Both the position numbers and the translations under genes were made by a program. The notes beneath the pieces were generated by a model. It worked only from the letters and a program-made list of their open reading frames with translations, had not been told where the DNA came from and ran no database searches. This document shows, piece after piece, positions 22,865 through 63,669 of a stretch of 64,000 nt of DNA. How positions within the stretch are numbered: position 1 is the stretch's first letter; the number at the start of each line of letters is the position of its first letter. This DNA is from Callorhinchus milii (lineage: Eukaryota). The DNA lies in NCBI RefSeq assembly GCF_018977255.1, contig NW_024704814.1, positions 62,001 through 126,000 of the forward strand, given 5' to 3'.

Positions 22865-22901
<37 letters not shown>

Positions 22902-23625: not shown

Positions 23626-23627
23626 TC

Positions 23628-23768: not shown

Positions 23769-23782
23769 ATTAACAACAGAAA

Positions 23783-24490: not shown

Positions 24491-24523
24491 GTGAGGACGT
24501 CGGGGGGCGGGGGGAGGAGAGGG

Positions 24524-36363: not shown

Positions 36364-38175
36364 CCAAGGCCTTGACAGCATTCCTAACGTGTGGTGCCCA
36401 GAAATGAACGCAGTGAGTCCTCGCGCTGAAGCCTCATCGGTGTTTTATACACATCATAACCTCCTTAATTTCGTCTCCTGGACGATAGACATTGGAGTCC
36501 TGCGGTTCGGTGGACAGAGCGCTCGCCGTGCGAGCGAGACGTCTGGTTCGTACCCGGTCAGGCAAAACCGGTGGCGAGTTTCCTTACTCCAGACACGCGA
36601 TAATAATCCCTATAGAGGGGCAAAACAAACAAATATAAATTGGTCACTTCAACCCACGGCTGCTTGTGCGACGCTGCTGTGCACCATCGGCTGCCGCGTA
36701 TCACCAACAAATATACAGTCACTTCACTTTACGATGTATTCCGTGAAGCGCTTTGGGACGTCTGTGAGTCACAATGAGGCACTGTATCAAATGGAAGTAT
36801 TACTACTATTGCACTGGGTACCAGGCGCAGCTCGCGGAAGCTACAGGACTGACCAAGCATTAATACTACACACACCATTAATACCCCACACATCCCCTTA
36901 ATAGCCCACACCCCATTAATACCCAACACACCTCATTAATATCCCACAGTGCCCGTTAATACCCCACAAAGCCCATAAATACCCCACACAGTCCGTTATT
37001 ACCCCACACAGACCAGTAATAGCCCACACACAATCAACACCCCACACACACCAATAATATCCCATACACGACAGTAATCTACCACATAGTCCACTAATCC
37101 CCCACACAGTCCATTAATCCCCCACAAAGCCCAGTAGTACCCCAGCAGCCTAGTCATATCCCCCACAGCCCAGTAATACACTCCACAGCTCATTAGTACC
37201 CCCCACAGCCCATTAATACAACTCAAAGCCCATTAATATCCCCATAGCCCATTAATACCCCCCACAGCCCACTAATATCCCACACCGCGCCTTAATAATC
37301 TACACAACTCATTAATACCCTGAACAGACAATTAGTACCCAGCACAGCTCATTAATACCTCAAACACTCCATTAATACCCCACACCGCATGAATACAACA
37401 CGCAATCAATACCTCTAGCAACCCATCAATACCCCACACACACCGTCAGTAAAGCATACACCCATTAGTACCCCACACACCATTAGTACCCCACACACCA
37501 TTAGTACCCCAAACACCATTAGTACCCCACACACCATTAGTACCCCACACACCCATTAGGACCCCACACCCATTTTACCCCTCACACCATTTTACCCCAC
37601 ACCTACTGGTATTGCACAAACCCATTGGTACCCTCACACCCATTGGTAACCCTCACACCCATTAATACCCCACACACATTGCTCTGACCCCGCCCACTCG
37701 CTCCCCATTGGTCCACCTCAAGCCCCGCCCCTTCAGCCACAGCCCTATTGGTGCGTCCGTCACAAACTGCACTGTGATTGGCCCTCCGTCCCCGTCAATC
37801 ATCTGCACTTCCGCCCCATCTCTCTGTCCTTCTCTCTCTCCTTCTCTCTTTCCCTCCCTCACCGTCTCTCTCTCCTTCTCTCTCTCTTCCTCCCTCAACG
37901 TCTCTCTCTCTTCCTCCCTCACCGTCTCTCTCTCCTTCTCTCTCTCTCTCTATCCCTCACCGTTTCTCTCTACTTTCTCTCTCTCTCCCTCCATCACCGT
38001 CTCTCTCTCCTTCTCTCTCCTTCTCTCTCTCTCTCTCTATCACCCACCGTCTCTCTCTCCTCTCCCTCTCCGTCTCTCTCTCCTTATCTCCCTCTCTCTT
38101 TGTTCCTCACCGTCTCTTTCTGTCTGTGCCTCAACATCTCTCCTCTATCTCTCTCCCTCACCGTCTCTGTCTCCT

Positions 38176-38206
<31 letters not shown>

Positions 38207-41200: not shown

Positions 41201-41256
41201 CCCACAAAGAAACTAATCAGATATAAATATGAGCTGCCAACACAAGGCAGGGGAGA

Positions 41257-44200
41257 ATGTCTGAGAAAACCGAAGGGAGCGACATGGAGTGTGGATCGAC
41301 CTCTGGGAAAGGTAAGTAATCGCCTCTCAATTTCTCGGTACCTTCGTCACTACTTTATTTGCTGAAGATATTGTTGAAACAACACGTTTACTTTGATGCA
41401 TTGGCTATTGACTTGTGAAATGAAGTTGGATTTTTACTGCACTGTTGAATTTAATGTATTAATAATATATAGTGATATTTCATTATAATCCTCCAATTTG
41501 CTAATGCGCCTCATCACAGCAATTAGATATCTCAAAACGCTGCACAGAATATATTGTAAAATGCATTTGGTGTTTTGTGGGTGAAACGCCTAAGATGCAG
41601 AGTGCAGTTAGTTTTTTTTCATTAGAAACGTCTTTCTCAGGGATTTCGGTTTTATTTAATGACATTTCTGAAAACATGATTTGTACTCATTTACGTGTAA
41701 GTAGTCTGTGAGGAAGGTCTGAATGATGCCTTTCCTTTTGATTGTGCTCTGAGACGCTATCCTGCACGGAGGGCGCTATATAAGTGCAAGTTGTAGTGTT
41801 CGGTTTGAATCCAGGTGGATTAGTACAGAGGATACATCAATCACTACCACTACCACATATCGCTTGTCAATAGTTAAGTGACATCAATACACCAGAGAAG
41901 AAATTCAGTCTCAATCTTGGCAGAGGGGACGGAAACTTTTCATTTTTCTAGTCTCGGTTGGATCGATGCCAAACACCTTGAAGCTTTGATTTCTACATGC
42001 TGAATTACAGAGTTAATAAAATATAAATATGTAATTATAGTCTTTATTAGCACATTGAACGTGCTCTGGCAATGATTATATCTTAACATTGTCTTTGACT
42101 TTTGAAAACATCTTATGTTTTGAAAACTAATTCAACCAGTAACGTACTTTCTGTAATTTTTTCTGAATATTTCATAATTAGTGCCTAAAAATCCACTGTT
42201 TAAAATGTCTCAAACAGCAAACACAAGTGAGTTAAGATTTTTTTTACGTGTGTGGTAAACAGATAATCCCTCCAATATAAAATAATAATAAATTGGTCAT
42301 TTTAAACCCACGACTGTTTGTGAGACAGACACTGCTGTGATCAATTGGCTGCCGCGTTTCGCCCTCAAATATACAGACAATTCACTTTACAGTCGATTCT
42401 GAGAAGCACTTTGAGATGTCAAGAAGACGTGAAAACCACTATATCAAATACAATGATTATGATTATTTTTATTATAAGCGCGTTCCTACTTATAATTTAG
42501 GTAATCGGAGGCCTGTGGTATAAATAATAATATTAATATTAATTCTTACATTTGATATAGCGCTTCTCACGTCGGGAGGACGTCCCAAAGCGCTTCATAG
42601 AACAAACTGAAAAGTGAATTGACTGTATATTTGTGGGCGAACGCGGCAGCCAATTGCGCACTGCAATGTCCCACAATCAGTCGTAGATTGAAAATAACGA
42701 ATTTATGATTGTTTCTGGTTTTTGGAGGGATTATTATGAGGCTCTTTGTGGAGTAAGGAAACGTGCCCAAGGTACCTTGGGACGTCCTCCTCAGTTGAAA
42801 ACCGCTTTGCAAATGTAATGTTCGTGTGCTTCTGTTTTAAATAACATTTCTCTACAGCAGATCAAATCGCAAATGGGTTCAGCTCCAAACGCAACCGAGT
42901 GAGCGGAGGAGAGTACGGGAGCAGCAGATACGATTTGAGAAAGAGGGATAGAAGGGATTACACTGAGGAAAGGGATCTTCCAGACGATGATTACCTGTGT
43001 GAGTGAAAAATCAATCTGAGTTTCTCAGCATCAAATGCTCGAGTGCAGAATCGGGCAGATGGCAGCCGGGCTCAGTTGGTGTGCTCTTTGCTCCGAGTCA
43101 GAAGTTTGTGGGTTTGAGCCCCACATCGCGGGCAACGAGTTGACAGTCTGGGCTGACACTGCAGTACAGAGCTGGAGTGGGGGGTGGGGGGGTGGGTAGC
43201 GACGCACTGTCAGATGTGCCGTCTCTCCCCGGTGACCTGGTTTTAATGGAGCTCAGTTGACAGGGCTGGGGAATGGCAACTCAGGTCAGGAACGGCAACC
43301 AAGCGCTGTCAGCAGAGATGGTCAGCCTTTCCACTGCTGTGGGGGATGGGAAGGGCTATGGGGACTGAGGAGAGAGCAGTGCAGGTGGTCAATATGGGGT
43401 TGGGAACACGGCACTTAATTGGAAAAACAATGAAATCCAGATTAAAGAGGTTTTGAGGAAGCGATAGGGATACAGATGGGAAGGAGACCCGTGAGAAGGG
43501 ATAGGAAGGCGATTGAGGAAAATGCTCATTGAAGATTTAGTCTGTGCGTTTGAAATATGAGGCCGCGAAGTGACATCACGCAGTGGATTTTGACCATTGG
43601 TTGGTTCAGGCGGGAAACGTCAAAATGGCATCCTCCGTAGAGCCCCGCACCCTAATCCTGCCCATCACCGCGCGATGCACTGTCATACACCCCGAGCTTT
43701 TAAGCTAAAGTCACTCTGCGCCTCTCCAGACACATAGTAAAGATCCTTTAATGGTGTGGTGGAACACAGAGAAACTCGCTTCTCTTTTGGAAACATGTCA
43801 TGGGATCTTTACTGTCCACCTGAACAGACATGGCCGGGAGCTCATTATAACATTTCATCTGAAGCACAGCACCTCCTACAATGGAAAGCATTTCCCGCAT
43901 TAATATAAGTATCTCCCTGTGTCCCAGACCGTGGTCAACTACACTAATCACGGAGACGCCTCACGGCTGTTTGTGGGTAGTTGTTGCCATCATAAACTGA
44001 CACTGTCAATAAGTGACCAGCATGAAGGGCGGTATATAAATGTAAGCTGCTACTGACCGTACAGTTCGCAGTAAATAATGTAAATCATTGACATCACCAG
44101 GTGCTGTACAAATGCAAGGATTCAATCGAAATTTGCTCCTGAGCAATTCGTACAGAAAGCCCATATATTGCTTATCCAGATCTTTCTTTTCTCCCATCAG

Positions 44201-45860
44201 CAGCCAAAGTAGGTGATTCTGAGTCTCATCCCTGGCCTCATGCCAACGTTGTGTTGAGTTGTGCCGAGTTCCTCCAGGAACACAACAGAAGACATCCCGA
44301 GTTCCATAAAGACACATCAACAACGCAGACTGCTTGTAGCGCAAATGATGCTTTGCAGCAGAGAGAGTGTCAGGAATCTATCGTATTTCATGTTGAAGAA
44401 AACCGAGTCTCGCAAACAGGATCTCTACAGGGTCACAAGCAATCGATCTCAGGAGATAGACTGTATAAATGTTCCCGATGTGGTGAGAATTTCATACATT
44501 CAGGGCACCTCAAGATACACCAGCAATCACTCCGAGAAAAGCGTCTGTATAAATGTGTGGAATGTGGGAAGAGTTTCACAGGATCGGACAGTCTGCAGAT
44601 ACACCATCGATCACACACAGGAGAGAGGCCATATAAATGTGCAGTATGTGGAAAGCGTTTTGCAACGTTAGCTTATCTCCAGATACACTATCGGTATCAC
44701 ACAGGAGAGAGGCCATATGAATGTGTTCAGTGTGGAAAGAGTTTTACACAATCAGGAGAACTCCAGAGACACCAGCAATCACACACAGGAGAGAAACCGT
44801 ATAAATGTGCTGAATGTGGAAAGAGTTTCACAAGGTCGTGTTATCTCCAGGTTCACCATCGATCACACACAGGAGAGAAACCATATGAATGTGCAGAATG
44901 TGGAAAGAGTTTCAGAGCAACAGGATCGCTCAAAATACACCATCGTGTGGAAAGAGTTTCACTGCTTCAGGATCTCTCAAAATGCACCATCGATCACACA
45001 CTGGAGAGAGACCATATAAATGTGCTGAGTGTGGAAAGAGTTTTTTATCCTCGAGTAAACTCCAGGGACATCATCGATCACACACAGGAGAGAAACCATA
45101 TAAATGTGCAGAATGTGGAAAGAGTTTCAGAGCATCAGGATCGCTCAAAATACACCATCGATCACACACTGGAGAGAGACCGTATAAATGTGCTGAGTGT
45201 GGAAAGAGTTTTTTAACCTCGAGTAATCTCCAGGGACATCATCGATCACACACAGGAGAGAGGCCACACAAATGTGTTCAATGTGGAAAGCGTTTCACAA
45301 CGTTGCCTTATCTCCAGATACACCGACAGTCACACACAGGAGAGAAACCGTATAAATGTGCAGAATGTGGAAAGTATTTCACAACGTCAGGTTATCTCCA
45401 GAGACACCGACAATCACACACAGGAGAGAAACCTTATAAATGTGTTCAATGTGGAAAGCGTTTCACAACGTCAGGGAATCTCCAGACACACCAGCGATCA
45501 CACACAGGAGAGAAACCGTATAAATGTGCAGAATGTGGAAAGTGTTTCACAAGGGCAGACAGTCTCCAGAGACACCAGCGATCACACACCGGGAAAAGGC
45601 CACACAAATGTGTTGAATGTTGAAAGAGTTTCACAAAGTCAGGAGACCTCCAGGGACACCGACAATCACACACGGGAGAGAAACCGTAAAGATGTGTTGA
45701 ATGTGGAAAGAGTTTTAAAAGGCCAAGTTATCTCCAGAGACACCAGCGATCATACAGCGGAAACAACCATATAACTCTACTGAATGTGAAAATATTTTCA
45801 AGGAAATAGCACCTCCAAACTCACCAGCAGATACACACAGGAGAGACTGTATAATTATGC
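41257..45860 (+). pseudogene. PRDM9-derived SSXRD + ZF gene lacking PR/SET, copy 2, disrupted: exons 41257..41311, 42858..42998, 44201..~45860
   Basis: Exon 2 encodes RYDLRKRDRRDYTEERDLPDDDYL. About 17 finger units; ~37-bp deletion at ~44945 shifts the frame (stop at 45216), TGA at 45621-45623 and TAA at ~45687. Confidence 0.82.
42530..42773 (-). mobile_element. SINE present only in duplication copy B, tail-to-tail with the SINE at 42262-42475
   Basis: Reverse-complement family tail/body; absent at the corresponding position ~27055-27140 in copy A. Confidence 0.85.
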
Positions 45861-48800
45861 CGAATGTGGGAATAATTTTGCGGTGTCGTATCAGAAAAAA
45901 AAATGTTCTTTATCAGCGGAAAGCTTTCCAGGAGCCGATACGGTTCAAAGTACGTACGAGAAGCTGCTTTGAGAAATGCATAGAATAACAATAATAGTTT
46001 GATGTATAACAGGACAGATATCTGTTTGATCCAACACCATTGACTCAGTTAAGACACCAGTGCGATAGTCTGTCCCCTTCTCTCCTGAACATGTGCTGAG
46101 GAACCAGCATTTCCTGAAGGTCCTCACAAACTGTTAGAGAGACCATACGAATGTGCTGAATGTGGAAAGAGCCCATGTCCGGCTATCACTGAGGTGTGTG
46201 GCTGCGGGAGAGAATAACAGAATGGCGCGGTGAGATATGAGCCCTCTGAAACCAGCTGTGGCTTCCAGTATCGGAGCTCACATCGCTGAAGTATATATTT
46301 TTGGTCAAAAGCACCTCGTCCCCTGGTTTGTTACCAGCAGAATGGGGAGTGCTTATAGTTTTTTTTTTTACCAACCAGTTTTTTTTTTCGCTGTTTATGT
46401 TAATCAAAATATTTCCTTTTCATTGCTGTGCTGGTGGGAGTGTTGGTGGTGGGGGCTGTGTTTGTGTGTGTGGTGGGGCTGGATGTGTGAGGAGGGCATC
46501 TGTGTGCGCGCGCGGGTTGGGGGGTGTGTGGNNNNNNNNNNNNNNNNNNNNNNNNNNNNNNGTTATTTGTAAATGGACGGTATTCAGGAATAGAGATATC
46601 TGAACCGGAGTCGTTTCCGTACTTCCTGCATCAGGAAAGTGAGTCACGCCCACTATCTCCCTGGTAAGTGTTGATTGACAGGAAAGAGTGATAGCCCACT
46701 GTCTCCCTGGTAACTTTTGATGGACAGAAAAGAGGGAAACGCCCACTCTCTCACTGGTAACCAGTTATTGACAGGAAAGGAATACACGCCCACTGCCTCA
46801 CTGGTAACCAGTGATTGACAGGAAAGAGAACACGTCCACTACTCTAAACTGGTAACAAGTGACTTACGTGACACACAGCAACTAACATTGTGTTTAATAT
46901 TGTTATTATTCCCCCGGCTCGGAGTTAGTAACCGCCATTATTAACGAATGTTATTACATTGTTATTACACAATGTAATAATTACGCACTGATACGGTGCC
47001 CAGTTTGGAGCGGAGGTGCTGTATCAGTTCATATTCTCCTTCCTATTTTTATTGTTGTATTATTTTTATTATTAATTTCCATAAACAACTAAAACCAGTT
47101 GCGTTTATATAGCGGACTCCACTTTGGGTGACTTCCACAGTACTTTACAATTGAGGAACATGATATTGCATAGTACATACATCGCAATGGACTACATACA
47201 ACCATAATAAATACGAACCAAATAATTATATCATCTGCTAAATAAAACAGTGTCAAAAAAACTCTGAACACCCAGTGAATTCCTGTGTCAATACGATTTG
47301 ATCTTGAAATATTAATAATAATCCTTGCATTTGATTTAGCGCCCATGAGAGTATGCTGTCAATTAACTTTACAGTATAATACGCGAAGCACATTGAGACT
47401 TCTAAAAGACATGATAAGGCAGAACTTCCAAAGCAAATTTAACTATTATTGTTAAAAAGCAAATTGGAAGCTTAAAGCGGGTTTCTGTCAAGAGAAATGT
47501 AAAAACAACGCTCCTTTACATTTATTCTGCTGTTGAGTTGAGCTGTTTTTCTCACTTTTAAAGTTAAATGTTTGAGCCTTTTCGCATGAGGTGTTGTGTG
47601 GTTTGTGCTTTATATCCGGTAATGCTGTTGAGGTGACACTATCACAAAGTTTAGCTACATATCACTCATTACCGTTTAATACTATTTACAATATTGAGCT
47701 GATCTGGACTCTAATGCCAGGAGAAAATCCCTTCTTTTTCCCAAATAGCATCACAGGATGTTTAATGTCTGTCCTGAGCACGGCACAAACTAGGGCTGAG
47801 TTTATCACTGCGTCTTAGATCGACAGCGAGAAAGAGAGGGAAAGAGAGACTAAGAATGTGAGAGGCAACGGGCGTAAGAGACAAAGATAGTGTGAGAGAT
47901 TCAGAGAGAGAGTGAAAGAGAGAGAGAGAGCTTCAGAGACACAAAAGGAGAGCGAGAGCTTTCATAGTGTGAGAGAGAGAGGCAGAGTGTGAGAGAAGCT
48001 TCTAAGCTAACACCATGAAAGTGGTTCAGCTTCGCATCAGCTTTTGCCATTTGAAAGCATGTTCAATATTAACCCTTTCGTACAACTTAAATTGAGTTAC
48101 TCTGGAATATAACAATTGGAGAAACTCCCTTCTCACTTCCCGAAAACGTCTCGGGATCTTAACAATTGTCTTCAACACAAAACAAATAAAGGTCAGTTGA
48201 ACCTCTCATTTCAAAGCCTATGATAAGCAGACGGTAAGTTTGAGTGAGAGCGACTATGTTTGCGAGTGGCTTACAGTGTGAGAGAAGCTTAAGGGGAGAT
48301 TGAGAGTGGTAGTGTGAGAGATACAGAGGGAGAGTGAGATTGGACGAGTGACAGGGGGACACATTGTGTTTGACAGAGAACTTGAGAGACACAGTTGGAG
48401 AGAGACTGAGAGTGTGAGAGACAAGGTGTGTGTGTGATACAGACTTTGAGAGAAACATATGGAGGGAGACTGGGAATTTCAGAGACACATACGGAGATAG
48501 ACGGACTGAGAGTTTGAGCGACACAGTTTTCAGAGTGTGCGAGAGAATGCGAGAGTCACAGTCTTTGTGTGTGGGAGAGACTGAGAGTGTGAGCAAAGAA
48601 AAGTTGGAGCAACTCTCTTCGCTTCACGCTATATACTTGAAGGTTTTTTCTCAGAGCCACAGACCAAATCTCTCATTCTCTCTGTCTGAGTCGTAGATTT
48701 TCTCCGTATTAAAACTGATCAAAAGCGTGCAGCGAATTTTGTTTTAATTGCATTTTGTGTATGTTGGAGCTGCAGAGACGAGAGAGCAGAATTTAATCCA

Positions 48801-51800
48801 GCCGGGAATTTACGAAGGCATGCATGAGTGTTTTGGCTGCTGTGGATATGAGGTATGGATTGTGGCGAGAAATGTGGTGGAAGTGGAAAAAAAAATTTCC
48901 TGCTGAGGCAATGGATGTGGAGTAGAAAGCAAAGAGTTGATGACTAGATTTGCGTATTCTACTGATTAAAATTTTGCATTTGAAGTGCTACCTTCTAGTT
49001 CTCTGACTGAAATGCGCTTTGATTCTGAATAACATTTTGTCTGAAATATTGAATATGCCTCTTCACGTCTCGAAGACTTGAAGAAGCGCTATCTAAAATG
49101 CAAGTAATATTATTATTATGATTGAAAAGCATTATTGAAATTCCAAGCGTGTTTACGGCCCAGAGAAATTTAGAGTCAAACTCAGGTAAAGAAATTCTGC
49201 TTTTCTCTTCAGTTGATTTTTTCCATTTACAATTAAATATTTGAGTCGCTTTTTGCAGGGAGGTGTTGTGTGGTTTGTGCTTTATATCCGGTAACGGTGC
49301 TAAGCCAATACCATGAAAGTGTTTCAGCTACACATCAGCCTTTGCCATTTGACACTATGTCCAATATTAACACTTTCTTACAGATTAAGTTGGACTGGTC
49401 TGGAATCTAACATTTGGAAAAACACACTTCTCTTTTCCCAATGGCGTCTCCGTACCTTTAATATTTGTCTTCGAGAAAGCACAAACTGAACCTGAATTTA
49501 TCGTCTCATCTTAGATCCTAAAATAGACAGTCGGAGGGAGAGAGAAAGTGAGAGAGACTAAGATTGTGAAACACACAATTTGTGAGAGAGACTGATTGTG
49601 CCAAAGACACATAGGCAGAAGAGAGACGGTACAGCGAATTAAAGAGTTTGCGAGTGAGAGAGAGCTAGAGAAAGAAATTGTGAATGACACAGTGTGTATG
49701 TGACAGTGAGTTTGAACGAAACAGATAGAGGAAGACTGGGAGTGTGCGAGACACAGGTGGAGATAGGGGCACCGAGAATGTGAGATGCACAGTGTTTCAG
49801 AGTGTGAGAGAGTTTATGAGATACAGAGTGTGTGTGAGAGAGACAGAGTGTGAGCAATGTGACCATAAGATTTCACATGAATTACATTAATTTGCACAAA
49901 TAGCTGAACTCCTGCAGTGAAAGCCGCTATGCTTATGTAATTTGTGTTTTATATTGTATAAAATTTGCACCTTGGAAAACAGAAATATTGGCTCCCTAAA
50001 CGGTCAACCGAGGTGTTGCAGAGTGAAGGCTGCCTGCCTTATCTAATTGTAATGGTCTCAAAACCCGTCAATAGAGCAGGGCTGAGAGCTCTCAATTTAG
50101 CGAATATTGTGAATTGTGCAGCTGTGAGACCAGCCAGGAGGGCAGATTTGAGATTTCAGATTAGTTTACTGTCCAGAGAAATACTGATTCAAAACACCGT
50201 TAAAGAAATTATGTTGTTCCGTTTATTTGCTTTTTCCTTCTTCAGTTAAATGTTTGAGAACTTTTTGCTGGGAGGTGCTGTGCGATTTGTGCCTCATATC
50301 CGGCAAAATTGCAAAGCTAACACCATGACAGTGGATCAGCTACACATCACCTTTTGCCGTTTACAGTTTGAGAGATGTAGAGAGAGAGTCTGCTTGAGTT
50401 TGTGAGAGAGAGAGAGGCAGAGAGCGTGCGAGAGTCACAGTTTGTGTGTTACAGAAGCTTTGAGATTCACAGATGGAGAGAGACTGGGAATCTGAGAGAA
50501 CCAATGTGTGTGTGACAGATATTGTGATAGTAACAGACGGATGGAGACATACCATAACATGTAGGAGGAGGACTAGGCCATTAGGGCCTTCGAGCCTGCC
50601 CCGCCATTCAATCATGGCTGATCTTCTAATCTAACTCCAGCTAATAACCTGACCCCGCCTTATCCGTATAAACCTTAAATCACTTTTGCAGTAAGAAATC
50701 TATCCATCTCAGTCTTGAATATGTTCAAGAACTGAGCGTCAACAGCCTTTTGGGGTAGTGAGTTCCATACATTCACCAGCATTTGATTGAAGAAGTTCTT
50801 CCTCAACTCAGTGCGAAAGGGCTGTCCTCTGATTTTAAGGAAGTGTCCCCTGGTTTTAGTTTCTCCAACCAGGGGAAAAAATCTCCCACTATCTACTCTA
50901 TCATGCCCTTTGATCATCTTATTAGATTCTGTACGATCCCCTCTAATTCTTCTATATTCTAGAGAATAAAGGCCCAAATTGGTCATCCTATCCTCATAAC
51001 TCATCCCCTTCATCCCTGGTAATAACCCAATAAATCTACGCTGATCTACTCAGGGCATTAATCAGCAATCAATGCCCTGAAATACTGCGGGGAAGGATAG
51101 AAGGATGTCGCAACAAAAGATAAAATGTGAACAACTTAAAAGTGGAAGTAGGTAATCCGACAAAGAGTCCAAACTGAGAGCGTAAATGTGTGGTTTCTTC
51201 TACCTATGTACTGTTACATTTGACTCCAGGATTCATTTCTGCGTGCAATTCTTCCATAGTTTTTTCACGGGAATCAATATAACATGCTGTGACTATGTAT
51301 TTGCAGAGGAACACAAACACGCAGAATTGTGCACACAGCAATGGAGAAGTGTCCAATGGGACACCAGGAAGAACCCACTTCTTCATTCTACAAAATACTC
51401 AGGACTGGGTTTCCAGCTCAGTTCACAGCTCTCAATCGGAGCATTACTCACGCACTAAAATAGCATTCTGCAGTTTCTGAGAATCAGCTTCACGCTGACG
51501 GATTGTGTGCAAGTCTTGCAACAATTCCTGTAAAGGACATCACATGTCGTGAGTCTGAGTCTCTGATTCCATCTCTAAACATCGTTAAATATACATCTAT
51601 ACGTCAAAGTTCGTGTTGCTCTCTGAGTGTATATGTTTCTGTGCGTGTCTATCACAGCTCAGTATGGGTGTGTGTGTGTCAGACTGTTCCTCAGTGTGTG
51701 TCACAACAGTTTCCATGTCAGTGTGACAGAGAAGCGGATGTTTTGTGATCACAGAGCAGGGTGACACTGTCAAAAACGTCTCCTGAGAATTACTCCGTTT

Positions 51801-53772
51801 CATTTAAGTCTGCAGAGATCCTTCCCCGTCGGACACCAACACAAGCCTCCAGGTTCTGTACTTGACTCGAGCTCCTTCTCATTCTCGAAATAGAATCATT
51901 GTTTCTTATTTTCGGTGAGGATCATTTCAATCCAAGCATATTTGTGGGAATGTACCTTAAAGTGTGGTTCTGTAGCTCTGTGGTTAGAGCAATCGCCTTG
52001 CAAGCGAGACACCTTGGTCCTTTTCCAGGCAGGGCGATCCCTTGGGGAAATTCTACACTATACGCCTCATAATAATTTCCCCTAAACAAAACAATACTGT
52101 TTTGCTCATTTTCAAGCACCGACCCGTTTGTAGGACACTGCTTTGTGCAATTGCCAACCGCACTTCGCCCACAAATATACGGTGAATTCACGTTAGACAT
52201 GTCCAGAACGCGTGAAAAACGCTATATCAAATGCAAGAATTATTGTTTATGATTATAACGCTTTCGGAGAGTCGTGCCAGCAAGAGAGTTGGAATGGAGA
52301 TAAGAGTGAGAGGCGTCTTTTTTGATCCTCAACTATCCTTTGTATCCCAAACCCGTGCCATAACCCGCTCTGCCTTCCCCCATTTCCGCAACATTAACCG
52401 GGTCCGTCAGTTTCTCACACCGCAGGCTGCTGGAACCCTCATACATTCTTTTATAACATGCTTTTATAAGATCCAGGCTTCTGTACGCAAACCCACTGCT
52501 TGTCCGCCTGCCCAAGAACTCCCTCTGTCGGCTGCAGATCACCAAGAAACCTGCAGCTAGTGTCATCTCCTCCACCAGGCTCAGTGACCCTATTATCCCC
52601 ATCCCTGTATGCAGTTCAAGATCCTGTTACTCACCTTGAAAGCGCTCCATGTCCTCAATCACGCCTACATGTGCGAACTCCTACCGCCTTTCCAATCTGC
52701 CCGCTCCCTCAGCTCAGCGGACTCCAGCCTCATTCAATTCTCCCACCTCAAAGCTCGACCATTGACGGGCGAGCATTTAGCCACTCTCTAACCAGCCACT
52801 AGGATTACGTTCTGCAGTCCCCCTACGTAATCCTTTCCTTGCTTCATACAAGATAAATCTGAACACTCTTCCCTTTGACCGTGCGGTCGATCACCTTAGT
52901 TGCCTTTGTCCTCCAGGTTCCTTAATTTTTTGTTGGTATAGGAGAGGCGGGAGGGGCGAGTGAAAACGCAGAGAAAGGAGAAAGGGGACAGTGAGGAGAG
53001 AAAGTCATTTCCATCCTTTCCCTCAATAACGTATATGTATTGCTGTATAAATGCAAGATGTCAACATGCAAGTTGTTATTGTTGGATAACGGGACAGTAG
53101 CTACCAGGAAAAACAAAAGCAGTAGGTACACTTCACACAGAAAGGGAGAAGCAATCTGCGCTGTCTGTTAAACATAAATTTCTCAGGTTATGAGTGGTCA
53201 GCAAATCGTTTCTTCCCCAAGCCTCGAAAGAGAAAAGAAACACAAACGGCACTTGCACAGAAAAATAAAAATCAGAAGTTGCTGGGAACACTCAGCATGT
53301 CAGGCAACATCTAAGGAGAAAGGAATGAGAGTCAACATTTCGTTTCCACGACCCTTCGTTTGATCTGCTGCCTCAACTGCTGAATGTTCCCAGCGACTTT
53401 TTGTTTTTGTTGTCTGATATACAGCATCTCCAGTAATTTGTGTTTTTTCTTGCGCAGAAAATGCCGTTCATCCCAACGGTGTGCTTGTCTGTGAAAGTTA
53501 CCTTTGTTCAGTCCTATTGTGCGCTCGCCCCACGATGTCTGTGATGGTGCTCGCTCCCCCGCTGGAGCTCGCTGCAATAATCCCAATCCCTGTCCTCTGT
53601 TTCTCTGTTGTATTTGTGCTGGTGTTCGCTCCCCCTATATTGATCTTTTTGGCGGCGAACTTGAGTGGCTGCCTGGAGTTAAGGAAAGATTCTGTGACGG
53701 GAGATCAGCCCTCTGATTGCGTGAATTATTGTATAAATAATTCCTGCTTTGTTCTTTCTTTTCCTTGTACAG

Positions 53773-53808
53773 TGTTATTTCTGGAGAGAAAGACTGTAGA
53801 ATCGACAG
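53773..53808 (+). CDS. 36-bp phase-1 mini-exon, probable second signal-peptide exon
   Basis: TTCTTTCTTTTCCTTGTACAG|TGTTATTT...TCGACAG|GTTAGT; encodes xLFLERKTVEST. Confidence 0.62.
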
Positions 53809-56482
53809 GTTAGTGACACAATTTGACAACCAAAAGTTGCTGTGGGAACATTGTCACCCTTGCTCTAACCCTACGCCTTGCCCCTTCCTTCTCCATTTCA
53901 GTTAGAGGTTGAAGACCTTCCTAGTCGACCATGCTTCATTCAGACGTATGGTATTCAGTGCAGAGGGAGCGAGTATGCTCTGAAAGATCTGCACTGATAT
54001 ATTCAGTAACGAAGTAGTAAACGATGGTCATATTTTAGGTGGAATCACCTATCGTATATAAAGTAGAAGAATAAATTATATAATATAATGTACAATGATA
54101 AAATACAAAATATTGTAATCTAATATAAATTATTGTAATAATAATAATCCATTAAATAATCAATACATTTCAGGTAAATAATTCATTATCTGACCATTTT
54201 ATAGTTCTCAAGTTTCGGTAAATCACAGTTTGATAAACTCAGAGGTTAGTTTATTTTTATTGAAGCCGGGGAGTTTGAATGGGTGTAGGGTTGCGGTTAA
54301 GTGGGCGTGGGTAGGTGCGGTGGACTGTGATCACGCTAGTGGGTCTGGAATCACTCTTCTCGTTAGGGTGAGGAAAAGCATTGAGGACAGGGAGATGGAG
54401 TAAGCACAGTGGGGTGATCACATGGATGAATACTGCGATAGGGGAATGGTGAGCAAAGGGACGTTGAACACAGGGGTGTTAGCAATAGATATTGTGAGTA
54501 CAAGGGTTTGTGAGCACAGTGTTGCATGAGCAATTGGGGTGAGCACAATGGGAGGAGGGTTCAAGTATATTTCACATTAGATGAAGCCAGAGTGTGAGGA
54601 AATGGGAAGTGACCGCAGTAGGATAAGCACAGGGGTTGAGCACAATGTGTGGAACATATGGGGATGCGCAGGTTCTGAGCAGAAGGGTTGGGGTTGCGGT
54701 GGGTTTGAACAAAAGCTGTTTGAGTCCAGAGGCTTTATCATAATGGGTTCAGCACAGGGTGTGAGAAAGGGGAGTTAGCGTTGTGTGTAAGAAGCACAAT
54801 GGTGGAGCACAGTGTGGTGGTAAGAATAGAGAACAGCGGGTGGCATAATAGAGGTCAACACAGGTGGTGAGTGCAATGGGGGGGGGGTAAGAATTGAGCC
54901 AAGTGTGGGGTGACCAGACGGAATGAGCACAGAAGTCTGAACACAGGGATTGGGGGAGGTATGGGGGGAATGGGTGGCGTGGTCACATGTGCGGACACAT
55001 GGGAAAGCAACGTGGTTTACACAAGTTGGCGCTGAACAGACGGAAATTAGAAAAGTGGGAGATAATCTCATGAACATGAGCACATGGGGCTAAGCACAGG
55101 GGAGGGCATAGGAGTGTAAGCGCAGGGAGTTATAATATTGTTAAATCTGAGGAGGGCTGGGAGTGTGGCGATCACCGAAGGCGTTTCCGATTTTAGGGAG
55201 TTTGGGGTGAGCATGGTGTACAGCGTTTTTCAGCTCTTCTACATGTCTCAAAGCGCTTCACAGAAGAGACTGTAAACTAAAATGACAGTGTAGTTATGAG
55301 CGAAATGCGGCGACAATCTGCTCACAGCAGTGTCCACAAAGAGTCTTGGATTGAAATGGCCATTTTTTTTTGAGGGATTATTATCAGGCAGATGGAATAG
55401 GAAACATCCCCAACGTTTTCCTGCCGGGAATCGAACCCAGATCTCTCGCTTGTTGTAATATTAATATATATATACATATATATATATAAATACGCTAACA
55501 AACCAACAATTCCTGTGTATCTGTGTCTGCAATTAACGGAATAAATGATTGTGTAGAGACACGATTTATACATGATCGGGAAGATCTTTCATATGCCAGT
55601 GCACGCTCCCGAGGATCTCCTATAGTTGATAAGTTATATTCAAAAATAATATTTAGTGAGGCCCCAAAATATGAGTTGTGCATAGTATCCTGCAACAACT
55701 TAGCCAAAGAGCAAAGTAACAGAACAAATCATACATGTATATTCAGTGATACATGTGCACTAATATATTTTGTAACAAACTAGTAAACTATGGCCATGTT
55801 TTGAGGGAATCTCCTATCGATATATAAAAAAAAATTAACCTTATACAACGCATAATAATATCATGTATAATATAACGCATAATAATACAATAAAAATCGC
55901 AGTTTAATATAAATTATAACAATAATAATGATGATCCGTGCATTTGAAATAACAACTTATCGGGTCGCGAAATGCTTCACAGAATATACTGCCATATCAA
56001 TCGTCTGTATATTTTGTGGGCGAAGCTCCGCAGCCATTAGCATACAGTGGTGTTCCACAAAAAGTCATGGATTGAGTGATCAAATTATTATTTTCTTAAG
56101 CGATTATTATCCCCGGAAAAGAGATCCTCCTATTCACTACTGTGCGTCTACTGAATGCTACGTAAGCAGATGCAAGTGGAGTGCGGAAACTTAAATAATA
56201 TCAATTTAACATAACACTATCGTTTCTTTGCAAACGTTGCTGCATCGGGTACAGATAATTGTGCAACGAACTATTCCTCTTATTGTGACACCCGGGTTGT
56301 GGACTTTATGCAACCAGCTGTCAATGCAACAACTATAATGATTAATATTGTTGTTTTCTTTACCTAAATACATCCTCTCCATGTAACATGCGCTCTGTGC
56401 ATATACATTTTATTATGCTTTCCTGAGTGACTGCAAGACAACCAGGAAACTGACTCTTAACATTGTGTGTTGTGGTTTCCGG

Positions 56483-56794
56483 AGGGTGTGAGGCTGGTGA
56501 ATGTTGGCTCCCCGTGTGCCGGGACAGTGGAGGTTAACCACGATGGAAAGTGGGGCACAGTGGGTGGCCGTGGCTGGGATATGAAGGACGCGGCTGTGGT
56601 GTGTAAGGAGTTGGGCTGTGGAGCTGCGCTGTCAGCACCAGGGGAATCTCACTTTGGCGAAGGCTCAGGTCCCATTGTGACCTATGGTGTTCAATGCAGA
56701 GGGAGCGAGTCTGCTCTGAGGGGTTGTAACTCAAAGCGTTGGCTTCACCGTCACTGGATCCCAAATTCCAATAATGCCGGCGTCATCTGCTCAG
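56483..56794 (+). CDS. SRCR group-B-type domain exon (open frame, six Cys; expected acceptor reads GG)
   Basis: EGVRLVNVGSPCAGTVEV...AGVICS, 312 bp, TCAG|GTAAAT donor, upstream TTTCCGG instead of TTTCCAG. Confidence 0.88.
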
Positions 56795-57956
56795 GTAAAT
56801 AATTCACCTGCGCTTTCTCGGGCGGGTGGAGTATTCGGGCTCAGCAAAGGATGGGGCTACCACATGCGGGTGTGAGCAGGGGGAACCAGAGATTTGAGCG
56901 TAATGGCTCAGCAGCGGGGTCGCGGTGATTCTTTGCGGTGGTGTGCGCAAGCGGGGAGAGGTGAGCATGGGGTGAAAGCATGGGGGCGGATAATAGAAGG
57001 TGGGTGAACACAGGGAAAGAGCAGTTGTAGCCTCATCTCGTCATCTAGACGTCTCCAAGTGCTTTAGATTGTTTTGCTGTCCAGTATAGTGATTTGGTGT
57101 TTTTAGGTGAACACGGCTGTCAATTTCCACACAGCAAAGTCCCACAAATAGCCAATGAAGTGAGGGACGTTTACGTTTTCCACTCTCTCTCTTTGAAGCA
57201 CCTTCAGAGCTCATAACCGCATATAATATTGATGGAAGGACTAATTAATGCTGATCAATGTGCGCCGCACGGATTGTGGTCTGATTGATCTCCAGACACA
57301 TTCCCACGGAATAAATGAATCAGCGGAGACAGAGGCCTGAATTTGCTCCCGATCTCAGCCCGTCACACATTTCATTTCCATTTGCAACAACGTTTGAATT
57401 GTGGAAAATGCTCAAAAAAAGCCTTCATTTGGGAAAAAGCCTTCTTCGTAAAAGCCACAAAAAAATGGGTTTGAAGGAACAACAATGGTGTTCTTTCCGA
57501 GAAAAGGATAGATGAGATATCCCGAGCTGTCAAACCCCGATCAATAGTAACTATACTAATTTGAGCACAGCAAAGTTCCCGCAAACAGTCGAGAAGTACA
57601 TGATTAATTTTTTTTTGTTGATTGTCGGCCAAGTCTCCAGAAGAAATTCACTTCTGGTTTTGAATATTTTCAGGATATCCGTAATCTCTACCTGAACAGG
57701 CATCCCGAGCTCGCAATGTCCCCGAGCTCACAGCGACCGAGAACTCACCCTGACAACGAGCTCACACTGACTCTGAGCTCAAAATGACCCCCGATATCAC
57801 ACTGACACTGAAGTCACATTCACCCGCAGCTCACATTGATCCCGAGCTCACAATTACCACGAGCTCTCACTGACCCCTGTTCTCAGTGACCTCTGCTCAC
57901 ATTGACCCCTGCTCCCACTGACCAAGGCTTTAACTGCAGCACATTTGTTTCCCCAG

Positions 57957-58501
57957 ATTCGCTCCAGAAACCCAACATTTCCCTGAAACCAGATTCCCGG
58001 GCATTTTTAAGAGGGGAAAGCCCCGAGATCTCGTGCTCTGGCAATTATCCTGTCAGTAAATTCTCTTTCCAGGCAGGGCGAAACCTTGGACAAGTTTCCT
58101 TACTCCACACAGAGCCTAATAATAATCCATCCAAAACCAAAAACAATAATAAAATTGGTCATTTTCAATATACGACTGTTTGTGGGACATTGCTGTGCGC
58201 AATTGGCTGCCGCGTTCGCCCACAAATTTACAGTCAATTCACTTTACAGTGTCTTCTGTGAAGCGCTTTGGGACGTCCTTCCGACGTGAAAAGCGCTATA
58301 TCAAATGCAAGGATTATTATTATTATTCATACAGAGACAGCGAGTTTATCACAACACAACCAGCTCCAGAGAATAACAACACGGCAACATTCACCACATC
58401 GGAAATCAGGGCAGGAAACTACTGGTGTAAATATACTGAGCACATAGACGGAGAAGAGGTCACATTACCAGAGAGCGAGCGAGTGAGAATCTCTGTGTCA
58501 G
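57957..58501 (+). pseudogene. Ig-like exon 1 (right arm) interrupted by a 260-bp SINE
   Basis: CCCCAG|ATTCG acceptor and G|GTAAG donor; 545-260 = 285 bp; DSLQKPNISLKPDS..EISCSGNY..FS[SINE]YRDSEF..GNYWCKY..SERVRISVS. Confidence 0.9.
58069..58328 (+). mobile_element. 5'-truncated SINE inserted in Ig exon 1
   Basis: The left arm has the empty site TTCTCTTT|ATACAGAGAC. Confidence 0.95.
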
Positions 58502-60264
58502 GTAAGAGCGAGTGTCCAGACTCTCACAATCAAAGGTTACTCACTGACCCCTTGTGGCCGATCACAACGATCACTGCACACCTCCGCCCCAAACTCCCTC
58601 TTGTTATGTCTGCACAGTGATTCGAGTCTCTCCCCTTTCCTCCCTTCATCCGCACCCTCTATTCATCCATGTCTTCTCCCCTCTCTCACTGTTCCTACTC
58701 CCCACACTCCTTATTCATAACTCCCTCCCTCACTCCTTCCAGCACCCTTCCACTCAAACCTCTATTCTTCACTCATTGCCTCTCAAACGCTATTTCCCAC
58801 ACCTTCTATTTCCCATTCCCACATCTCTCACCACCATTTGCTCCCCCAACCGCATTTCCTCCCTTCCTCTGACCCTCTTTATATCTCTCTCCACCCACCA
58901 TTTCACACCAACTGTTCCTGCATCTGTCTCATATACTGGCTCCCACAAGCTCCCTTCCTACAGCACCTCTATTCCATTCTCCCTCCTGTGAAAGTCTGAC
59001 TTCCTCCTGAATGTATCTAGACTGTCTGATTCCACCAACGCTCCAGGAGTAAGTCTCATCTTGTCACTCCCTTGTGTGTCCACGACTGTTTGTTAGACAT
59101 TGCTGAGCGCAAATGGCTGCCGCGATTCGCCCACAAACATACATTCAATTGATTTTACAGTATATTCTGTAAAGCGCTTTGAGACGTCTGGAAGCCCTTG
59201 AAAAACTCTGCATGAAATGCAGTGAAATTGAGTGATCGAGCGAGAATCTCTGTGTTGACTAAGAGCTTGGACTCACGGACCAATGGACACTTATTTATCT
59301 CTAGTGTCCAGTAATTGAGATGACAGCACGCCTCCGCCCCATCCTCACGTTTCTTTATATCATCATACACTTATACAACACAGAAGGATGCCATTCGCCC
59401 TGTTGTGTCGGTTCTGGCTTTTTGAAAATAGCTATCTGATTCAATCGCAAACCCCGCTCACCCGGTAAAGTCCTGGAGAAGTTTTCTCCACAATTTTTTT
59501 TTACTACACGTTTTAATGCACTAGTTTCTCGGCATTGCTCCCTTATTCCCAAAAACTGACTCAATCACTCACTCCCACACACAACTTCCCTCACACTCAT
59601 TGCTTCACACAACCTCGATTGTACGCTCGGTCAAACGCACTGATAGCCTCCCACACCCTGATGCACTTCCTCACCCTCATTGCCTCCAACACATTCTCAT
59701 ACTACCACAAAATCTGTTCCGCCCTTACATCCCCTGACAGTCTCCCAAAGCTTCTATTACCATTTTCCTCATACCATCCAATACCCCACTTCCTTCAAAA
59801 TCCTGTATTCCCTTCTCAATCATGTGACGCTCTCACTACGTCTTGAATGTCTGCAGACTACACAATTCAATCCTCGCTTCAGCAGCCTGTTCCCTCTGTG
59901 AAGTGAATGCTCCTGAATTCTCTTTTTGGTCCTTTGGTCACGATCTTACCCTATTGTACCAAACACGGCTGAAGATCACACGAGCAATTCACACTAAATT
60001 CCCGTTCTCCCGTCCTAGGCTGCAAAGCTTTGTTACCCAGTCCCCGCCCTCACTGCTCTCCCTGGCCGCTCACTCTGCCAGTCGTTTCTCCCCCTCCCTC
60101 TGTTTAAAAAAAACACTTGCTGGAGTCTGTCATGAATCTGCCTGTCAAGCCCTCTCCCTGGTCCTGAGGCCTCCTTCAGACGGAGAAACAAGCAAATGGT
60201 CACTTTTTCTTTGACTTGAACCGAGAATGTCCGTAAGATTATTTTTACTGTGTTTCAATTCCAG

Positions 60265-60571
60265 ATCCTGGAAGTCCTGTAGCTCAGTGGTTAGAGCACT
60301 CGTTTTGCAAGTGAGAGACCTGTGTTCAACTCCAGGCAGGGCGAAACCTTGGGCAAGTTTCCTTACTCCACACGCCTAATAATAATCCCTCCAAAACCAA
60401 AAACAATAATAAGTTGTTCATTTTCAATCTACGACTGTTTGTGGGACATTGCTGTGCTCAATTGGCTGCCGCGTTCGCCCACAAATATACAGTCAATTCA
60501 CTTTACAGTATATTCTGTGAAGCGCTTTGGGAAGTCCTCCCGACGTGAAAAGCGCTATTTCAAATGCAAGG

Positions 60572-60603
<32 letters not shown>

Positions 60604-60886
60604 CCGCTCCAGAAACCCACAATTTCGCTGAAACCAGATTCCCAAGTGTTTGTGATGGGAGAAAGCGCTGAGATCTCGTTTTCTGGGAATTATCCTGGCA
60701 GCAGCTTCTCTTTATACAGAGACGGCGAGTTTATTACATTACGAGTTGCTCCAGAGAGTAACAACACGGCAACATTCATCCCATTGGAGATCAGTGCAGG
60801 AAATCACACCTGGAAATATACTACAAAAATAGAGGGCCGAGAGTTCATATCATCGGTGAGCGAAGAAGCAGGAATCTCGGTGCTGG
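60265..60886 (+). pseudogene. Ig-like exon 2 with a SINE inserted 4 nt into the exon and both Cys lost
   Basis: TTCCAG|ATCC[SINE]ATCCGCTCCAG; 60602-60886 = 285 bp; EISFSG and NHTWKY replace C..C; in-frame TGA in the SINE head. Confidence 0.88.
60269..60601 (+). mobile_element. Full-length tRNA(Ala-like)-headed SINE flanked by an ATCC direct repeat
   Basis: GTCCTGTAGCTCAGTGGTTAGAGCACTCGTTTTGCAAG..GTTCAACTCC head; (TAT)n tail; ATCC at 60265-60268 and 60602-60605. Confidence 0.95.
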
Positions 60887-62059
60887 GTAAGAACTGAGTG
60901 AAATCTTAAACAGTAACCTGTTTGTTTTTTGACCATTTAGAACAGTCCCTGTTATAAGCACGCATTCACCTCTCACAGGCTCTGCCACTTTTCACATCTC
61001 TCTCCCATCTCACCCCTCTTTATTCCCTCTCCCCGTCGCTCACCCATATCGCCCCAGTCTCCACACTCTCTTCCCCCTCTCTAACCCTCTTTCCTAACAT
61101 CAGTCCCAACTCTTTGCATTCTCTTGCGACTCTCTCCCTCCTCTTTTCCCCCACCCCCCTCACACTTTTCCCGATCACGCCCCATTCTCTGCAACCTCAC
61201 TTCCAGCCCTCTCTCTGCATTGGTCTCCCACAATCTCTCTTTCCACCCTCCACTCCCAGCCTACTATTCATTCCTCATCCGCGCTCCCGCATCCACAATT
61301 ACTCACGTTGCTCGATTTCTCTCCTTCCCCCTCCAATCAAACTTCTCGTCCCCCACGCAAACCGCTCCTAATTGTGCAGGTATCTGTCTATTGATATTGC
61401 CACAGGCAGCCTTTCCCGCTTTTGTCCAGATAGGACCACACTACCTGCCACGGTTGTCGTTTGCAAAGATTCACATGAGAAGAGTGCGATGACCTACCTA
61501 TGAGTCCGACTGGCATCTGCTGTCATGAGCCATGCTCTGGAATACAGCGAACTCTCTCCTGACTGAGGAACCAGTGTAGAGACCAATCGCGGTGGTCTTA
61601 ATTCTGACTTTCTGTTGCTGAACACATCCCGCTGTCTCCTGTTCAGCTGCTGTTACTCGCATTCATGTTAAGGTCTAACTTCCACTTGATTGTGTTTAAG
61701 GCACATCTGAAAATAATACGAGAAGTTCAGACTGAATTCATATCCGAGGTTGTGCTACGCTATTCCTTGTCCACATTGCCGTCCCTGGTCACCTCGCTCA
61801 CCCGCCGCGACCACCAACCCACCCACCCTCCCCACCCCACACACACACAAACACACCCCGCCCCGCTTCATCTATATGAAGAAACCCTAAATGGGGTCTG
61901 TCCTGAAACTGCCGTAAACCACTCACCCCCACTGCCTCGTCCTGACATCTCCTATAGCCTAAGAAAAAAAGCAAATGTTAACTTTTACTCTGACTTCATC
62001 CATATCCGTGTCTCCGAATGATTGTTTGTGAGATTACCTTCACTGCATTTTAATTCCGG

Positions 62060-62344
62060 ATCCGCTCCAGAAACCAAACATTTCCCTGAAGCCAGATTCA
62101 CGGGTGTTTGTGAGAGGGGAAAGCGCCGAGATCTCTTTTTCTGGGAATTATCCTGGTAGCAATTTTTCTTTATACAGATATGGCAAATTTGTCAGATCCC
62201 AACCATCTCCAGAAATTAGCAAAACGGCCACATTCAGTCCATCGGACCTCACCGCAGGAAACTATATGTGTAACTATGCTACACACATGCACGGTCGGGA
62301 GTTCACATCACCAGAGAGCGATCGAATAGGTATCTCCGTCTGGG
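62060..62344 (+). pseudogene. Ig-like exon 3 (open, but acceptor AG>GG and first Cys>Phe)
   Basis: TAATTCCGG|ATCCG; 285 bp; DPLQKPNISLKPDSRVFVRGESAEISFSGNY..GNYMCNY..; G|GTAAG donor. Confidence 0.8.
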
Positions 62345-63384
62345 GTAAGAACGAAAGCCTGGACTCCCTCACCAATGATCACTTACTGCCCCAGAGTGTC
62401 TAGACATCGCGATCACAGCACGCATCCGCCCGATCCTCCCTCTTATTTATAGATTCATACAATTATATAGCACAGAAGGAGGAGATCCGGTCCATCATAA
62501 CTGTGTCGGCTCTTTGAAAAGATTTATGCGATTCAGTCTCATTCCTCCGCTTCCCTTCTCTTTCGCTTTGGAAACGTTGCCTTCCAAAATAATTATCTTC
62601 TTTCACTAGCTTTGTGACACGAGCCAGTCCCCATTCCTCCATTCCTCTCCCCAGCTGACCACATCATTCCCTCCCGCAGACAACCTCCCTTACCCTCTCT
62701 CCCTCCCATTACCCCTTTCCACTATCAATCACACATGCTTATACCCTCCCATAACATGATACACTCCCACACACTTATTGTTTCCCAAACGCTCTTTACT
62801 CCCACTGCGACTGTTTCACTATCCCATCCTCTGACTGCCTCCCAAGGCTTCGAATCCCCACTCTCTGATTCCATCCCACAGCAATGCCCACTTCCAAACC
62901 CTGTCGTACACTCTCCCTCACGTGAATGTCTTATTACTTCTTGAAAGTATCTAGACTATATGATTCAATGCTAGATTCGGAAAGCGAGTGCCACCATTTC
63001 ATTTCACTCTGTGTGAAGCTCTTGCTCCTAATTTCCTTCTTGGATCCACTGTTTCTGGTCTTAAATCGTTGTTTTAAAACACGGCTGAAAAGCACACTAG
63101 AGTAAACTGAAATCACGTCGTACCGTCCAAGGCAGCAATTGTGTGTTTCCTCAGTCCCCCGCTCTCCCTAGGAACCCCACTTCCATCCATTGCTCCACCT
63201 CCCTTTGTATAACGAAACACGAACTGGAGTTTGTCTTGTTCCTGCCCCTCAACCGCTCCACCTCGTCCTGACGCCTCCCTCAGACTGAGAAAAATGCAAA
63301 TAGTTACTTTTACTGTGACCTGTACTGTTTTCGTGTCAAAGAGCGAGCCTTTGTGAGGTTATTTTTAATGTGTTTTCATTCCAG

Positions 63385-63669
63385 ATCCGCTTCAGAAACC
63401 CAACATTTCCCTGAAGCCAGATTCTCAGGAGTTTATGAGCGTGGAACGCGCTCAGATATCGTGCTCTGGGAATTACCCTGGTAGCAGGTTCTCATTATAC
63501 AGAGACGGCGAGGTTATCACATCACATACAGCGCCAGAGTATAATTACAGGGCGACATTCACGCCATCAGAGATCAAGGCAGGAAACTACACGTGTATGT
63601 ATACTACATATATAGAGAGACGTCAGTTCACATCGCCAGAGAGCGAGCGATTGGTTATATCTGTGCGCG
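63385..63669 (+). CDS. Ig-like exon 4, intact (C2-type, LRC/FcR-like)
   Basis: TTTTCATTCCAG|ATCCG..CGCG|GTAAG; 285 bp phase 1-1; DPLQKPNISLKPDS..QISCSGNYPGSRFSLYRDG..AGNYTCMY..SPESERLVISVR with both Cys. Confidence 0.9.

Follow-up and report, generated by a model that had tools for sequence, protein, structure and literature searches.

A 64,000-nucleotide stretch of the genome of the chimaera Callorhinchus milii (assembly GCF_018977255.1, contig NW_024704814.1, positions 62,001 to 126,000; hereafter the window, to which all coordinates refer) carries on its + strand the exons of a receptor gene in which an SRCR (scavenger receptor cysteine-rich) domain is followed by four tandem immunoglobulin (Ig) domains. 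This locus is best read, with a probability of roughly 0.8, as the pseudogene arm of a recent inverted duplication, derived from a family that joins SRCR domains to Ig domains resembling those of leukocyte receptor complex (LRC) receptors and that is predicted to contain inhibitory/activating pairs. The original prediction for this locus, made from the DNA letters alone, implied a working receptor; both the disabled state at six of its eight exons and the presence of an inverted, likewise disabled copy had been missed.

Structure and decay of the locus

The exon elements all share the + strand and follow one another as mini-exon, SRCR and four Ig, with phase-1 boundaries assigned by homology, as had been proposed from the letters alone. 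The first leader exon, which had not been identified before, can now be placed at 51890-51914 (+ strand, 25 bp of coding sequence). This is the window's best match to the first 8 residues of the annotated C. milii protein XP_007910464 and is followed by a phase-1 GT, with the start codon ATG changed to ATA. The second leader exon, an intact mini-exon of 36 bp (53773-53808, + strand), has ag/gt ends and an open phase-1 frame, and 8 of 10 residues of its peptide are identical to XP_042201871. Of the 455 AG-36nt-GT segments found on both strands, this one and its duplicate in the inverted copy reach 36 when compared with the mini-exon peptide of C. milii, as against 9 for the next best, and the match is therefore not a matter of chance; the 36-bp mini-exon of the original prediction is real.

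Equally borne out are two SRCR elements, namely the relic of a first SRCR exon (about 53900-54175, listed as 53901-54175 with approximate limits, + strand) and a 312-bp SRCR exon (56483-56794, + strand) with an open frame, six cysteines and a Pfam PF00530 match of 4e-27. Mostly the 3′ part of the relic remains, the 5′ part being largely gone, with a stop, an AT-rich insert and a retained donor. The Ig exons, also on the + strand, are found at 57957-58501 (Ig1, spanning 545 bp), 60265-60886 (Ig2, spanning 622 bp), 62060-62344 (Ig3, 285 bp, open frame) and 63385-63669 (Ig4, 285 bp, intact, with a Pfam Ig_C19orf38 match above cut-off). When insertions are left out each unit measures 285 bp, mutual DNA identity is 74-77%, and the third codon position differs more often than the first or the second, which fits exons that formerly coded for protein. 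The four 285-bp Ig exons described earlier thus hold as homology units and not as usable exons, Ig4 being the sole intact one of the four. No transmembrane (TM) or tail exon was found within the 64-kb window, which ends 331 bp after Ig4; a weak tail match at 51782-51838 (E 0.064) was taken as chance.

Lesions affect six of the eight exons of this copy, the mini-exon and Ig4 being the clean ones. More specifically, (i) an in-frame stop lies 9 codons upstream of the leader ATA with no ATG between, (ii) the SRCR and Ig3 acceptors both read GG instead of AG, (iii) in-frame stops in Ig1 and Ig2 have been brought by short interspersed nuclear elements (SINEs) that split these exons, (iv) Ig2 is without both Ig cysteines and the first cysteine of Ig3 is replaced by Phe, amounting to three of six cysteines lost over Ig2-Ig4, and (v) the first SRCR exon is reduced to a relic. 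The element in Ig1 is a 5′-truncated tRNA-headed SINE of 260 bp (58069-58328, + strand) that is not found in the inverted copy, and that in Ig2 is a full-length tRNA-headed SINE of 337 bp (60269-60605, + strand), with an ATT tail and a 4-nt target duplication, inserted four bases past the acceptor. With regard to the cysteines, 35 of the 36 distinct annotated C. milii Ig domains match both cysteine patterns, and the 36th has both on inspection. Two possible ways around the lesions were considered and rejected. Rescue by an alternative SRCR acceptor would have to use either the nearest AG, 2 nt downstream and out of frame, or in-frame AGs that are 27-57 nt distant and have weak pyrimidine tracts. 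An upstream scan for hydrophobic leader exons beginning with ATG gave two poor candidates, the true leader having lost its ATG. Judged as a gene, the + strand locus has no start codon, two non-canonical acceptors and frames that are not open in every exon, and its sequence very probably represents a pseudogene.

Several points weigh against a dead locus, and two alternatives build on them. The frames of the mini-exon, SRCR, Ig3 and Ig4 are still open, and together with the fitting order, strand and phase they could be taken to indicate an active gene for an intact receptor with SRCR and four Ig domains, as first implied. Such a gene is hardly credible, given the lost start codon, the two GG acceptors, the two stop-bearing SINEs and the three missing cysteines; errors of base calling do not create SINE insertions, and the GG acceptor of SRCR is present in both copies. 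Alternatively, a shortened product might be made from another first exon, such as one running from mini-exon to Ig4 and TM, or a soluble decoy. All exons being in phase 1, the dead ones could be skipped without a shift of frame, both mini-exon and Ig4 are intact, and one annotated isoform of LOC103191288 (P0003), the gene that encodes XP_007910464, puts another first exon before the mini-exon. This remains improbable, as the upstream scan revealed no alternative leader beyond the two poor candidates and the decay of six exons suggests that constraint has been lost. In a related manner, a downstream remnant (Ig4 and a TM exon past position 64000) could still be used from another promoter.

The contigs of four public sequencing runs (X1 and X3 taken as DNA, X9 and X14 guessed to be RNA) also leave a point on this side. 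Paralogs in these contigs have the AG and the cysteine where the Ig3 exon of the window has its lesions; in run X1 none of the contigs listed has the letter of the window at the acceptor of Ig3 or at the two Phe codons, and in run X3 a residual depth of 9-18 only is left unexplained by the other letter. The run contigs give no clear verification of the window's own single-base lesions, which are thus not independently verified. No exon-exon joint occurs among the 15 joints listed of 4184 across the contigs of the four runs, which are dominated by SINEs and uninformative on splicing or expression.

The inverted copy

The pseudogene on the + strand is accompanied by a second copy on the - strand (1063-7381), which is homologous from leader to Ig1 and runs off the start of the window. 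Its leader (7381-7357) keeps the ATG, its mini-exon lies at 5500-5465, and it too has a relic SRCR. The following SRCR exon combines the GG acceptor common to both copies with a 1-nt deletion of its own, and Ig1 has an 8-nt deletion and no SINE. The arms are arranged head to head, with 97.5% identity between 1236-8394 and 58068-50877 and 98.2% between 8930-12626 and 50365-46632. Since lesions are common to both copies, their comparison suggests that decay began before the duplication.

The inverted duplication as a whole (1236-12626 / 46632-58068) flanks a spacer of ~34 kb. Past the Ig1 SINE, identity falls to 84.5% (3-1238 vs 58326-59570), a drop that would fit the end of a conversion or recombination tract at the SINE.

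A family of SRCR-Ig receptors in C. milii

Although the locus is disabled, the architecture that it once had can be followed in annotated relatives. A search of longer proteins with Ig4 returned 27 matches at 58-74% identity, from C. milii wherever a species is named and none from other species; counts over these 27 are inflated by isoforms and by two annotation releases. Pfam SRCR domains are present in 11 of the 27, and Ig-only models occur too. XP_007910464 (LOC103191288, annotated as ‘uncharacterized’) consists of a leader, a 12-residue mini-exon peptide, two SRCR domains, four Ig domains, a TM helix and three motifs like the immunoreceptor tyrosine-based inhibitory motif (ITIM). Annotated isoforms of this gene and XP_042201871 part ways precisely where the 12-residue peptide starts and where it ends, which, in these predicted models, is what a separately spliced exon would produce, and two of the LOC103191288/XP_042201871 models join the peptide directly to the second SRCR.

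The window copy is homologous in order to LOC103191288, XP_042201732.1, XP_042201871.1 and XP_042202631.1, sharing with them the leader, mini-exon peptide, SRCR and tandem Ig domains. Its Ig4 is 74% identical to the membrane-proximal Ig domain of LOC103191288 and is placed as its sister (support 100/85) in a tree of 52 Ig domains, taken at no more than four per protein from 17 proteins plus three window exons, and free of LRC or FCRL rows; the three window exons nest in the chimaera clade (support 96/95). The annotated paralogs have open models that end in a TM helix and an ITIM-like tail, or in an NxxR helix or short tail, whereas the window copy is disabled and stops before the TM. All of these paralogs are automatic predictions, bearing for example the names DMBT1-like, A1BG-like or IGSF1-like.

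There is little doubt, as far as predicted models can tell, that the SRCR-Ig architecture is real at the family level. The chimeric receptor family suggested by the original prediction is found here, where annotated chains combine the leader and the mini-exon with SRCR and Ig domains, a helix and ITIM-like motifs, and what does not stand is its extension to this disabled locus. Weighing against the family, its architecture rests on predicted gene models for which RNA support is not visible. As the gene models are already public, though unrecognised, what is new is their interpretation and not the sequence. An odd member without a TM is P0014 (C. milii, ‘TRIM17-like’), in which SRCR and 2 family Ig domains are joined to PRY-SPRY (B30.2); it is either a wrongly fused model or a mosaic of the butyrophilin type.

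The SRCR domain of the window deserves a separate remark. Group B SRCR domains are defined by eight cysteines, and the window SRCR falls below this number with six, two cysteine positions of CD163 being occupied by Gly and Trp. The first of the two is also absent from the first two SRCR domains of LOC103191288, and its loss is therefore a subfamily trait rather than decay. Several chimaera members are likewise without this first cysteine, which most shark and bony-fish members retain.

Predicted pairing and function

The C-termini of the family fall into two kinds, as expected of paired receptors. At least two ITIM-like motifs, recognised by motif, are present in 8 of the 27 relatives, and 4 of the 27 end in a short tail and have NxxR or NxxH where the helix begins (P0016 is not among them, since its NxxR match is not in the helix); XP_007882735 / XP_042202631 has the NxxR helix. 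XP_042202631 (short tail, NxxR helix) carries SRCR and three Ig domains, and XP_042201732 (ITIM-like tail) three SRCR and two Ig domains, yet 175 of 180 residues are identical over their shared SRCR and first Ig domains. Such near-identical SRCR-Ig regions with differing tails are a signature of paired receptors. As a side observation, in P0027 and P0025 a helix of otherwise inhibitory type contains a Lys or Arg, which would be reminiscent of activating KIR derived from inhibitory KIR; P0222, a close relative of P0027, has Thr at the helix position, and the charged residue may be a rare variant.

Intact members of the family are thus predicted to work as LRC-type paired receptors. In such a scheme, the signal peptide would be encoded by the two small exons and ligand would be bound by the SRCR and Ig domains, SRCR probably being the outermost. 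Recruitment of SHP-1/SHP-2 would proceed via the ITIMs of long-tailed members, and short-tailed NxxR members would signal via an adaptor of FcR-gamma type bearing the immunoreceptor tyrosine-based activation motif (ITAM); NxxR helices are described, in excerpts of PMC6557307, as the link between LRC receptors and FcR-gamma. The window copy was probably of the inhibitory kind, because its Ig4 groups with the last Ig domain of the three-ITIM gene LOC103191288.

Two reports weigh against this overall reading. NxxR helices are used by Xenopus FCRL and SLAM receptors as well (PMC6557307), and Akula et al. 2014 (PMC4016189) detected, in the shark genomes then available, no LRC homologs with C2 domains only and no FcR-gamma chain.

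Ancestry of the Ig domains

Both sequence and fold relate the chimaera Ig domains most closely to LRC receptors. Searched against PDB sequences, Ig4 has PirB as its sole match, and LRC receptors make up 40 of the 41 matches of a seven-Ig relative, 10 of the 10 matches of an Ig profile and all 60 best of the 76 matches of an NxxR member. An AlphaFold model of Ig4, built on a seven-sequence alignment, reached a predicted confidence score (pLDDT) of 88.9, and its best fold match is CHIR-AB1 (Z 13.5, root mean square deviation 1.8, 88 aligned residues), with PirB (12.4), OSCAR (12.3) and LILRB4 (12.0) scoring above FCRLA (9.5) and FCRL5 (9.3). The top seven rows of a Foldseek search with this model are LRC receptors. 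In the Atlas, the top named clusters are IGSF1-like, A1BG and KIR3DX1, FCRL2 standing lower.

The comparison with LILR, FCRL and related domains that had been called for ranks LRC first for the chimaera domains. Of the non-chimaera relatives one, from sawfish, was searched against the PDB, and its best Ig match is FCRL5 (66.8 bits), level with PirB (64.9 bits). Identity between the chimaera Ig and LRC domains is 20-29%, and a shared fold is not descent; both points weigh against the preferred ancestry. Taken together, these sequence and fold comparisons make LRC descent of the chimaera Ig domains likely rather than proven.

The leader contributes less. A 36-bp second leader exon is given as characteristic of LRC genes in the original prediction, but small second exons are present in other SRCR genes too. 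No 36-bp rule for LRC leader exons is stated in the literature passages searched, so that this exon argues less strongly for LRC ancestry than the original prediction claimed. The pattern at the locus (25 coding bp and 36 bp) is unlike the 30/21 bp of FCRL genes, which, however, only a fraction of Xenopus genes follow (PMC2413239, in part). With respect to definition, human LRC ectodomains consist of 1-4 C2-type Ig domains only (PMC6557307, in the passages available), and strict LRC membership of the chimaera family fails on this Ig-only ectodomain criterion.

A fairly unlikely alternative accepts the family as real and denies it LRC descent, regarding it as an independent SRCR-Ig paired family, either FCRL-like or a separate C2-type lineage, whose LRC likeness came from convergence or deep shared ancestry and whose mini-exon came from the SRCR side. 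The low identity and the tie of FCRL5 with PirB agree with it, mouse FCRLS provides an Ig-SRCR mosaic within the FCRL family (PMC4016189, in the part available), and automatic LRC names in non-mammals are often misleading according to a passage of PMC6557307. In addition, the window has no LRC marker gene, C2H2 zinc-finger arrays and repeats being found there instead. On the other hand, every search with the chimaera domains ranks LRC first with a margin (Z 13.5-11.8 vs 9.5 and 9.3), the leader differs from the 30/21-bp FCRL pattern (PMC2413239, in part), and the SRCR-less member P0009 has a similar 12-residue stretch after its leader.

Distribution and significance

Fusion of SRCR to Ig domains is not special to the C. 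milii genome. Among the 150 best matches of XP_007910464 in a representative library, 22 new proteins combine SRCR with Ig domains detected by profile, one of them from C. milii. Looking up 19 of the other 21 added 14 further species, the proteins being mostly named ‘DMBT1-like’: the sharks and rays Heptranchias, Scyliorhinus, Cetorhinus, Chiloscyllium, Narcine, Pristis, bowfin, six teleosts and the caecilian Geotrypetes. Searches with P0018, which is longer, or with the Ig and TM region of P0153 added no further species. One Heptranchias member has an Arg at the helix start, and Pfam Ig_C19orf38 is above cut-off in 3 of 6 non-chimaera SRCR-Ig proteins. One model, P0117 (Sardina pilchardus), also has Mib_herc2 and uromodulin D8C domains alongside SRCR and Ig.

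Like the chimaera family, these ‘DMBT1-like’ models have SRCR followed directly by Ig domains that the chimaera profile detects. They differ in that SRCR and Ig domains are interleaved, chains are longer, Ig scores are 22-64 bits as against 144-171, and predicted tails are mostly without ITIM-like motifs. Because of these low Ig scores and the scarcity of ITIM-like motifs, a single origin of SRCR-Ig genes across these species is, on their sequences, plausible and no firmer than that.

A wider scenario is put forward tentatively and is possible without being probable. LRC-type paired receptors would date to the last common ancestor of jawed vertebrates, their ancestral form being an SRCR-Ig mosaic that expanded into ITIM and NxxR members in chimaeras and was retained, under the cover of ‘DMBT1-like’ names, in sharks, bony fishes and caecilians, with the Ig-only KIR, LILR and CHIR of amniotes arising by loss of SRCR exons. 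If true, the question of LRC age would be answered and the missing fish counterparts of the LRC would be named. The time of origin of the LRC family is called unclear by Guselnikov and Taranin 2019 (PMC6557307, in excerpt), and it is for this question that the chimaera family, with SRCR fused to Ig domains of LRC likeness and with members of both the ITIM and the NxxR kind, offers named candidates. The locus itself illustrates no more than birth-and-death decay within a cluster of immune receptors. Automatic annotation puts many family members under SRCR names, which may be why genes of this kind went unnoticed.

No description of SRCR-bearing LRC-like receptors was found in the literature searched, whose coverage leaves subscription journals mostly outside; nor do such receptors appear in the available portions of PMC9276791, PMC13572128, PMC4810170, PMC3031540, PMC12827074, PMC10206138, PMC9162367 and PMC6182393. 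A shark myeloid marker is annotated as lilra5 in the accessible text of PMC13572128. A 2021 paper in Immunogenetics is said to report one LRC-like gene in elephant shark, which could reduce the novelty of the present family.

Repeats and surroundings

The SINE that disrupts Ig1 and Ig2 has 23 matches within the window, and its copy number is very high, with a depth in the millions in public runs. Calls of tRNA-Ala(TGC) by ARAGORN at 60273-60344, 24037-24106 and 39524-39593 are heads of this element and not tRNA genes. Long degenerate tandem arrays of 18-20-bp C/A-rich units with strong strand skew occupy ~14500-22000 and ~36800-37700, and are followed by (CT)n tracts and assembly gaps. Fragments at 34600-36200 (+ strand) and 50675-51049 (- strand) resemble, as judged by eye, reverse-transcriptase frames of long interspersed nuclear elements (LINEs).

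Within the spacer between the inverted arms, a direct duplication (~21000-30500 / ~36500-46500, 78-91% identity) has a C2H2 zinc-finger array in each unit. The first array (28465-29847) is an open frame of 460 residues, in which 10 fingers are recognised by pattern; two frames share the second (44143-45900), and a third, degenerate one is found at 31439-32300. The human LRC also lies near zinc-finger clusters, a resemblance that is not diagnostic.

Comparison with known receptor systems

By sequence as well as by fold, the nearest Ig domains to those of the C. milii family are found in the LRC receptors (LILR/PirB, KIR, OSCAR, NKp46, GPVI, LAIR1 and chicken CHIR), which also share with it a split leader and the occurrence of ITIM-bearing and NxxR-bearing members within one family. 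Human LRC receptors are without SRCR domains, in contrast to the C. milii family, where these are present at the locus and in 11 of the 27 relatives. For the SRCR domain of the window, the closest solved domains are those of CD163 and DMBT1, both of group B and likewise encoded with one domain per phase-1 exon; unlike the C. milii family, neither has LRC-like Ig domains. Mouse FCRLS is also a mosaic of Ig and group B SRCR domains (PMC4016189, in the part available), but it is a soluble member of the FCRL family, whereas the chimaera family is membrane-bound in its models and ranks LRC above FCRL.

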